Assembly: GCF_030384885.1 (NCBI RefSeq)
Contig: NZ_CP128613.1
DNA length: 64,000 nucleotides
Source of the DNA: Escherichia coli
Lineage (GTDB): Bacteria > Pseudomonadota > Gammaproteobacteria > Enterobacterales > Enterobacteriaceae
Reading direction: 5' to 3' (one strand)
The position numbers were made by a program, and so were the translations under genes. Below the pieces are notes generated by a model. It had not been told where the DNA came from. It saw nothing but the letters and a program-made list of their open reading frames with translations, and searched no databases. This document shows positions 29,293 to 29,503 of this stretch, piece by piece; within the stretch, counting starts at the first letter, position 1; each line of letters begins with the position of its first letter.

Positions 29293-29503
29293 ATTAGTTG
29301 CCCTGGCAAGTAATTAGTTGCAGGGGATAATATTGCCCAGGCAAGTATAAGTCAAATGAATGAATTAACCGATGCCACGTTTTGCTAAATCGGTTCAAGT
29401 TTTGGTCAATGCGATTCAAGGCTAGCTAAAGAGTGACACTTTATCGTTGTTTACCCCTTATACTTTTCGCTGATAACCCAGATACACAGGATAACAACCA
29501 CTA
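29293..29503. promoter_or_regulatory. marO: marO: divergent marRAB/marC control region with MarR sites II (TTGCC-CTG-GCAA, 29298-29309) and I (TTGCC-CAG-GCAA, 29333-29344) and marbox (about 29371-29390)
   Basis: Two TTGCCnnnGGCAA palindromes on the marR side, -10/-35 elements bracketing site I, and GATGCCACGTTTTGCTAAAT marbox upstream. Confidence 0.8.

Follow-up and report, generated by a model that had tools for sequence, protein, structure and literature searches.

The 211-bp region at positions 29293-29503 of the window, i.e. of the whole 64,000-nucleotide stretch of Escherichia coli DNA analysed here, is, as judged from its sequence, very probably the native marO of the E. coli marRAB operon in an intact, K-12-like form. 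Intrinsic multidrug resistance in E. coli is controlled at marO, and deletions, duplications and point mutations in marO or marR de-repress marA and raise efflux. The arrangement found here is the ordinary textbook switch, which is already known, and it brings no new biology.

Genomic setting and control elements of marO

On the open reading frame map, the region fills exactly the gap between the GTG start codon of marR (29290-29292, minus strand) and the ATG of marC (29504), and its G+C content is 40% vs 48% in the whole window. Genes and elements discussed below were as follows:

29293-29503, minus strand: marO, the whole marC-marR intergenic control region (open reading frame map and K-12 alignment)
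28858-29292, minus strand: marR, GTG start, 144 aa, repressor for sites I and II
28455-28838, minus strand: marA, 127 aa, marbox-binding activator
28205-28423, minus strand: marB, 72 aa
29504-30169, plus strand: marC, 221 aa, transcription directed away from marRAB
29298-29312 (core 29298-29309), minus strand: MarR operator site II, TACTTGCCAGGGCAA on the marRAB strand
29319-29320, minus strand: inferred marRAB transcription start, 7-8 nt past the -10 hexamer, giving a 5'UTR of about 27 nt
29327-29332, minus strand: -10 hexamer TATTAT (promoter scan)
29333-29347 (core 29333-29344), minus strand: MarR operator site I, TACTTGCCTGGGCAA on the marRAB strand
29350-29355, minus strand: -35 hexamer TTGACT (promoter scan)
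29371-29391, minus strand: marbox, predicted MarA/SoxS/Rob site, GATTTAGCAAAACGTGGCAT(C) on the marRAB strand
29393-29407, no strand assigned: Fis-consensus 15-mer just upstream of the marbox, reading GACCAAAACTTGAAC on the marRAB strand and matching GNNYANNNNNTRNNC
29440-29454, minus strand: GTAAA-N5-ATAAA direct repeat, CpxR-box-like (pattern match)

The location of marO between the divergent marC and marRAB is annotated in the same way in the near-identical strain E. coli 2013C-4282, which shares 99.96% identity with the window over 44 kb (14001-58126), the match stopping after 58126. The wider gene order, with ydeE, eamA and marBAR on one side and marC, ydeA and yneK on the other, is also the same in this strain and in K-12 MG1655. 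Compared with the K-12 proteins, marC was identical at 219 of 221 positions (99%), MarR at 141 of 144 (98%), MarA at all 127 (100%) and MarB at 64 of 72 (89%). At the DNA level, the mar neighbourhood (25912-32410) was only about 95% identical to K-12.

The Rfam scan revealed no RNA family in marO. Its sole match in the window was a full-length hit to RF01407 (STnc560 Hfq-binding sRNA; 280 bits) at 25464-25677 on the plus strand, placed between dgcZ and ydeE and adjoining mgtS/mgtT; we take this locus to be MgrR.

Two palindromes that the preliminary description had located at 29298-29309 and 29333-29344 were found precisely there, as TTGCCCTGGCAA and TTGCCCAGGCAA on the plus strand. Their spacing had been given as TTGCC-N3-GGCAA and needs to be corrected to TTGCC-N2-GGCAA, as the 12-bp length assigned to each palindrome already implied; the pattern TTGCCNNNGGCAA had 0 matches. 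The pattern TTGCCNNGGCAA matched just twice in 64 kb, with 0.18 matches expected by chance, and two matches were reached in 2 of 100 shuffles. Together with their flanks the operators constitute a 15-nt direct repeat, 35 bp apart and identical at 14 of 15 positions. Both sites are reportedly footprinted by MarR in vitro (work of Martin and Rosner from 1995), and crystal structures of MarR are present among structure entries, including 5h3r, presumably a MarR-DNA complex.

Site I occupies the spacer between the -35 and -10 hexamers and is identical to its K-12 counterpart, for which the same location, an importance for repression and a multidrug-resistant phenotype upon deletion were described (PMC3920692). 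Site II, the name of which is taken from the same literature (PMC3920692), is likewise identical to K-12; it is part of the 5'UTR, downstream of the inferred start site and ahead of the marR GTG, and extends over a weak AGGG ribosome-binding sequence. The TAC beside its palindrome was 95% conserved across genera among the matches listed. Two TTGCC-N2-GGCAA sites stand at the positions described for MarR, one between -35 and -10 and the other between the inferred start site and the start codon (PMC3920692). The arrangement also agrees with the general pattern of the MarR family, a palindrome overlapping the regulator's own promoter, with site I lying in TTGACT-17-TATTAT directly upstream of marR. 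In ChIP-seq experiments, MarR was found only at the marRAB promoter (PMC5684230).

This promoter, on the minus strand, matches the sigma-70 consensus at 10 of 12 positions, encloses site I and is the sole strong sigma-70 match in the region. The position of the marRAB start is predicted from promoter geometry and agrees with a marbox centre that we assume to lie at -61.5. On the opposite strand, CTGGCA-17-GATAAT (29303-29331) was considered as a marC promoter and rejected; it matches at 9 of 12 positions, and the 2 such sites are within the range of chance (1.0 +/- 0.9 expected).

The marbox proved to be intact, as had been proposed: GATGCCACGTTTTGCTAAAT occurs once, as an exact match at 29371-29390, with 0 occurrences expected by chance. 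It is located 15-16 bp upstream of the -35 hexamer, at the K-12 distance and in the K-12 orientation with no indels, its 20 bp are identical to K-12, and it deviates from the consensus AYNGCACNNWNNRYYAAAYN by one mismatch. The MarA site ccacgttttgctaaa, listed in a ChIP-seq study (PMC5684230), corresponds to positions 29375-29389 of the window, that is, to the marbox core.

A second near-consensus marbox, ATAGCACTAATTGCTAAAA, was detected at 50523-50541 on the minus strand, approximately 270-290 bp upstream of an ORF of the ECSE_1600-family autotransporter (ATG near 50813); the same string as its core, gcactaattgctaaa, has been published for the peak of MarA in ChIP-seq at yneO (PMC5684230). 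No soxS or rob genes were seen in the examined parts of the window.

Upstream of the marbox, the candidate Fis 15-mer matches a weak consensus, for which chance predicts 0.34 strand matches, or about 0.17 sites, in 211 bp. Scans of marO with the CRP consensus gave no match. The GTAAA-N5-ATAAA repeat is presumably the reported CpxR site. Fis binding upstream of the marbox is known from the literature (PMC6003448), and the exact boundaries given here are our inference from the match to the degenerate consensus. Sort-Seq mutagenesis of the marRAB promoter confirmed sites for the activators Fis and MarA, for RNA polymerase and for MarR, the MarR signal being lost in a marR deletion (PMC6003448). 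The sites for CRP, Cra, CpxR and AcrR are based on overexpression, in vitro or computational evidence (PMC6003448). It should be added that the marbox core (29376-29390, CACGTTTTGCTAAAT) and the accessory/Fis region (29396-29410, CAAGTTTTGGTCAAT) form a direct repeat with 12 of 15 positions in common and 20 bp apart, and the accessory site therefore resembles a degenerate second marbox.

Variation of marO and MarR within E. coli

Alignment with marO of K-12 MG1655 (NC_000913.3, 1618909-1619119) paired the two 211-bp regions base for base, with 206 of 211 positions identical, no indels and five SNPs. The core elements are identical, as none of the SNPs touches a MarR operator, a promoter hexamer (-35 or -10), the marbox or the start codon of marR. 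Between 29366 and the marR GTG, a segment that comprises the -35 hexamer, site I, the -10 hexamer, the 5'UTR and site II, identity to K-12 is 100%; mismatches in the operator half-sites, on which the preliminary description had staked its reading, number zero from 29366 to 29290 against MG1655. The five differences, given for the marRAB strand, are:

29367: T here, C in K-12; spacer between marbox and -35, 4 bp from the marbox
29405: C here, A in K-12; degenerate position 3 of the Fis-consensus 15-mer
29416: A here, C in K-12; about -97 from the inferred marRAB start and 88 bp upstream of the marC ATG
29446: C here, G in K-12; spacer of the GTAAA-N5-ATAAA repeat
29502: A here, G in K-12; 2 nt before the marC ATG

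At 29405 it is K-12 that carries the minority allele, and the allele of the window is present in 4,240 of 5,426 complete E. coli genomes. The T at 29367 is a minority allele (its exact 61-bp context was found in 299 of 5,399 E. coli records), and the A at 29416 is rare (18 of 5,426 genomes). All five are most likely neutral natural polymorphisms outside the core elements.

Damaged or rearranged forms of marO do occur in other E. coli strains. In UPEC957C (about 2496-2505 of locus L005) and HUE1 (about 2496-2505 of locus L004), a 35-bp deletion between the two TACTTGCC(A/T)GGGCAA repeats fuses sites I and II and eliminates the -10 hexamer; both strains exemplify a non-intact marO, whether of natural or laboratory origin. 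The marR of HUE1 is also annotated as frameshifted. Furthermore, a cassette of a RelE/ParE-family toxin and an HTH antitoxin takes the place of the intergenic sequence nearer to marC (the marC-proximal half) in about 370 of 5,418 E. coli records, for example in TUM17668 (L003, 2631-3434) and HUE1 (L004, 2591-3394), and leaves operators, marbox and Fis region in place. The marO of the window contains neither the 35-bp deletion nor the toxin-antitoxin cassette.

The repressor itself differs from K-12 MarR by A53S, G103S and Y137H. The latter two were not associated with resistance level in a survey of isolates (PMC4317672), and S103 and H137 are also the residues of E. albertii and of the species representative of E. 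coli. At positions 53, 103 and 137 the residue changes freely from one enterobacterial genus to another; position 53 holds A, G, E, V, S or T depending on the genus, with S in Escherichia sp. ESNIH1. Because of this variation at residue 53, A53S is probably neutral, and the open-access literature searched contained nothing relevant on it.

With the sequence intact, the set-point of the switch might still be shifted in this lineage, if 29416, 29367 or MarR A53S altered basal or induced expression of marRAB (or marC). The thought is encouraged by the rarity of the 29416 allele, by a marR allele 100% identical to that of the window in the same small set of strains that tops the list for the rare 29416 A, by the closeness of 29367 to the marbox within the spacer to -35, and by the lack of any report on A53S in the literature searched. 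All three changes, however, lie outside footprinted or conserved cores. Among the matches listed, conservation of the spacer that separates the marbox from -35 is just 62% across genera, and Salmonella arizonae and Pseudescherichia have the same GTTAAT in it; residue 53 of MarR varies as described above; and the carriers were of human, bovine, dog and goat origin, a mix of sources that does not point to a selected resistance clone. We consider such a shift improbable, and a small clade defined by 29416 A plus MarR A53S, to which the window would belong, with a basal level or inducibility of marRAB or marC unlike that of K-12, to be quite improbable; that the minor haplotype of 29416 A, 29367 T and MarR A53S, present also in strain 2013C-4282, changes the set-point is unlikely as well. 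If true, such a clade would represent a natural variant, altered in its set-point, of a resistance switch with clinical relevance. For the intact, K-12-like marO that we favour, the preliminary description had claimed both wild-type repression and a MarA/SoxS/Rob activation architecture: the architecture is supported by the sequence, while wild-type repression may be expected from it and depends on MarR with its A53S and G103S/Y137H replacements.

Conservation of the arrangement in other genera

Species-representative genomes were scanned for the double palindrome, which returned at least 120 stretches, about three quarters of them from unrelated genomes among the matches listed. In at least 31 stretches, belonging to about 20 enterobacterial genera, a MarR orthologue follows 5-6 bp downstream. 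In this cross-genus set the palindromes are conserved by construction, being the search pattern, and the -35, -10 and marbox are outside the pattern; the scan measures conservation among the orthologues recovered and not universality. For 26 non-E. coli sequences among the matches listed, identity to the window was:

-35 hexamer: 97%
-10 hexamer: 86%
marbox: 80%
Fis region: 34%
further upstream: 28%

Such a pattern supports a function for the promoter, the marbox and their spacing, as far as conservation can indicate it, and shows the accessory/Fis region as apparently specific to Escherichia, being conserved only there among the matches listed.

The marO regions of other Enterobacteriaceae that were compared (Salmonella enterica subsp. 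arizonae, Citrobacter, Klebsiella oxytoca, Raoultella, Cedecea, Pluralibacter, Mangrovibacter and others) share several features with the window. A first palindrome occupies the interval between a TTGAC -35 and the -10, and another follows 35-36 bp downstream, with its end 5-6 bp from the marR start; the marbox, TTTAGCA...GTG.CAT, is found upstream at a constant distance. These regions differ from the window in the central two bases of the palindromes, which vary, and in the sequence upstream of the marbox, which is not conserved outside Escherichia. Insertions between marbox and -35 were noted in Enterobacter sp. R1 (10 bp; L050) and Cedecea sulfonylureivorans (9 bp; L064); with 9-10 bp corresponding to approximately one helical turn, the activator would stay on the same face of the DNA.

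Outside the family, Vibrio sp. CK2-1 and two Ramlibacter genomes resemble marO in having paired TTGCC-N2-GGCAA palindromes at the own promoter of a MarR-family gene, one of them between a TTGACA -35 and the -10 (L107, 5167-5209; L034, 2344-2385; L122, 1353-1394). Half-site and placement thus reach beyond Enterobacteriaceae. The comparison covered palindromes, promoter and regulator; the proteins are only 53% (Vibrio sp. CK2-1) and about 32% (Ramlibacter) identical to MarR, and in Ramlibacter the second palindrome is upstream of the -35, whereas in marO it is in the 5'UTR. A contig labelled 'MAG: Caldithrix sp.' (SMXE01000224.1; L016, 3366-3849) carries a marR 97% identical to that of E. coli together with the marO double palindrome, and is most likely E. 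coli contamination of the MAG.

Other promoters of the mar/sox/rob regulon, such as those of yneO-type autotransporters, micF and acrAB, have in common with marO an asymmetric 20-bp near-consensus marbox; within the window, this is exemplified by the second site GCACTAATTGCTAAA (50523-50541), which is a published MarA ChIP-seq site (PMC5684230). Unlike marO, they are without MarR operators, in line with the confinement of the MarR ChIP-seq signal to marRAB (PMC5684230).

Mode of action, alternative readings and significance

The sequence and spacing of marO, its identity to K-12 and its conservation across genera are observations made here; the mechanism outlined below would apply by analogy with published work on the identical K-12 sequence. 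The sigma-70 promoter TTGACT-17-TATTAT would drive transcription of marR-marA-marB on the minus strand. MarR dimers are expected to bind the two copies of TACTTGCC(A/T)GGGCAA: at site I they would fill the spacer between -35 and -10 and thereby exclude RNA polymerase, and at site II they would cover the 5'UTR with its weak ribosome-binding site, immediately ahead of the marR GTG. Salicylate-type inducers or copper-mediated oxidation would bring about the release of MarR. A MarA monomer, or one of its paralogues SoxS and Rob, would then bind the asymmetric 20-bp marbox and activate transcription, and Fis bound just upstream of the marbox may enhance this activation. With repression by MarR and activation by MarA, the circuit would join negative and positive autoregulation.

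Two alternative readings of the repeated elements deserve weighing against this scheme. Site II could act mainly at the RNA level, its transcribed palindrome forming a 5'UTR hairpin that masks the ribosome-binding site, and not as a second operator. Its placement downstream of the inferred start and its overlap with AGGG would fit such a role, as would the absence of a clean repressor signature in Sort-Seq, where the downstream MarR site was less distinct, probably because of the overlap with the ribosome-binding site (PMC6003448). The 50-nt 5' end of the transcript, however, is predicted to fold weakly, at -4.3 kcal/mol (z = +1.4), and 190 of 200 shuffled sequences folded at least as well. 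Moreover, site II repeats 14 of the 15 positions of site I, flanking TAC included, in agreement with recognition of both by a single protein. A role in RNA structure was rejected on the basis of this fold, weaker than those of most shuffles, and we regard it as very improbable.

The palindromes and the marbox-like string might, on the other hand, be chance matches devoid of any regulatory role. Taken alone, the marbox consensus is indeed weak, with 2 matches vs 1.41 expected in 64 kb, and the double palindrome occurs by chance in many unrelated genomes. Against this, the only two TTGCCNNGGCAA sites in 64 kb are found 35 bp apart and exactly at the marR promoter, the region is identical in its core to the experimentally characterised K-12 sequence, and the same arrangement recurs 5-6 bp upstream of marR orthologues in about 20 genera among the matches listed. 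Coincidence on that scale is so improbable that it hardly needs to be considered further, and the reading of the palindromes as two operators of a genuine marO is retained.

With an intact, K-12-like marO and an unremarkable MarR, the mar system of this E. coli is predicted to be inducible and normally repressed, with no cis-acting Mar mutation. The call of an intact marO is useful for annotation and for resistance-genotype calling.
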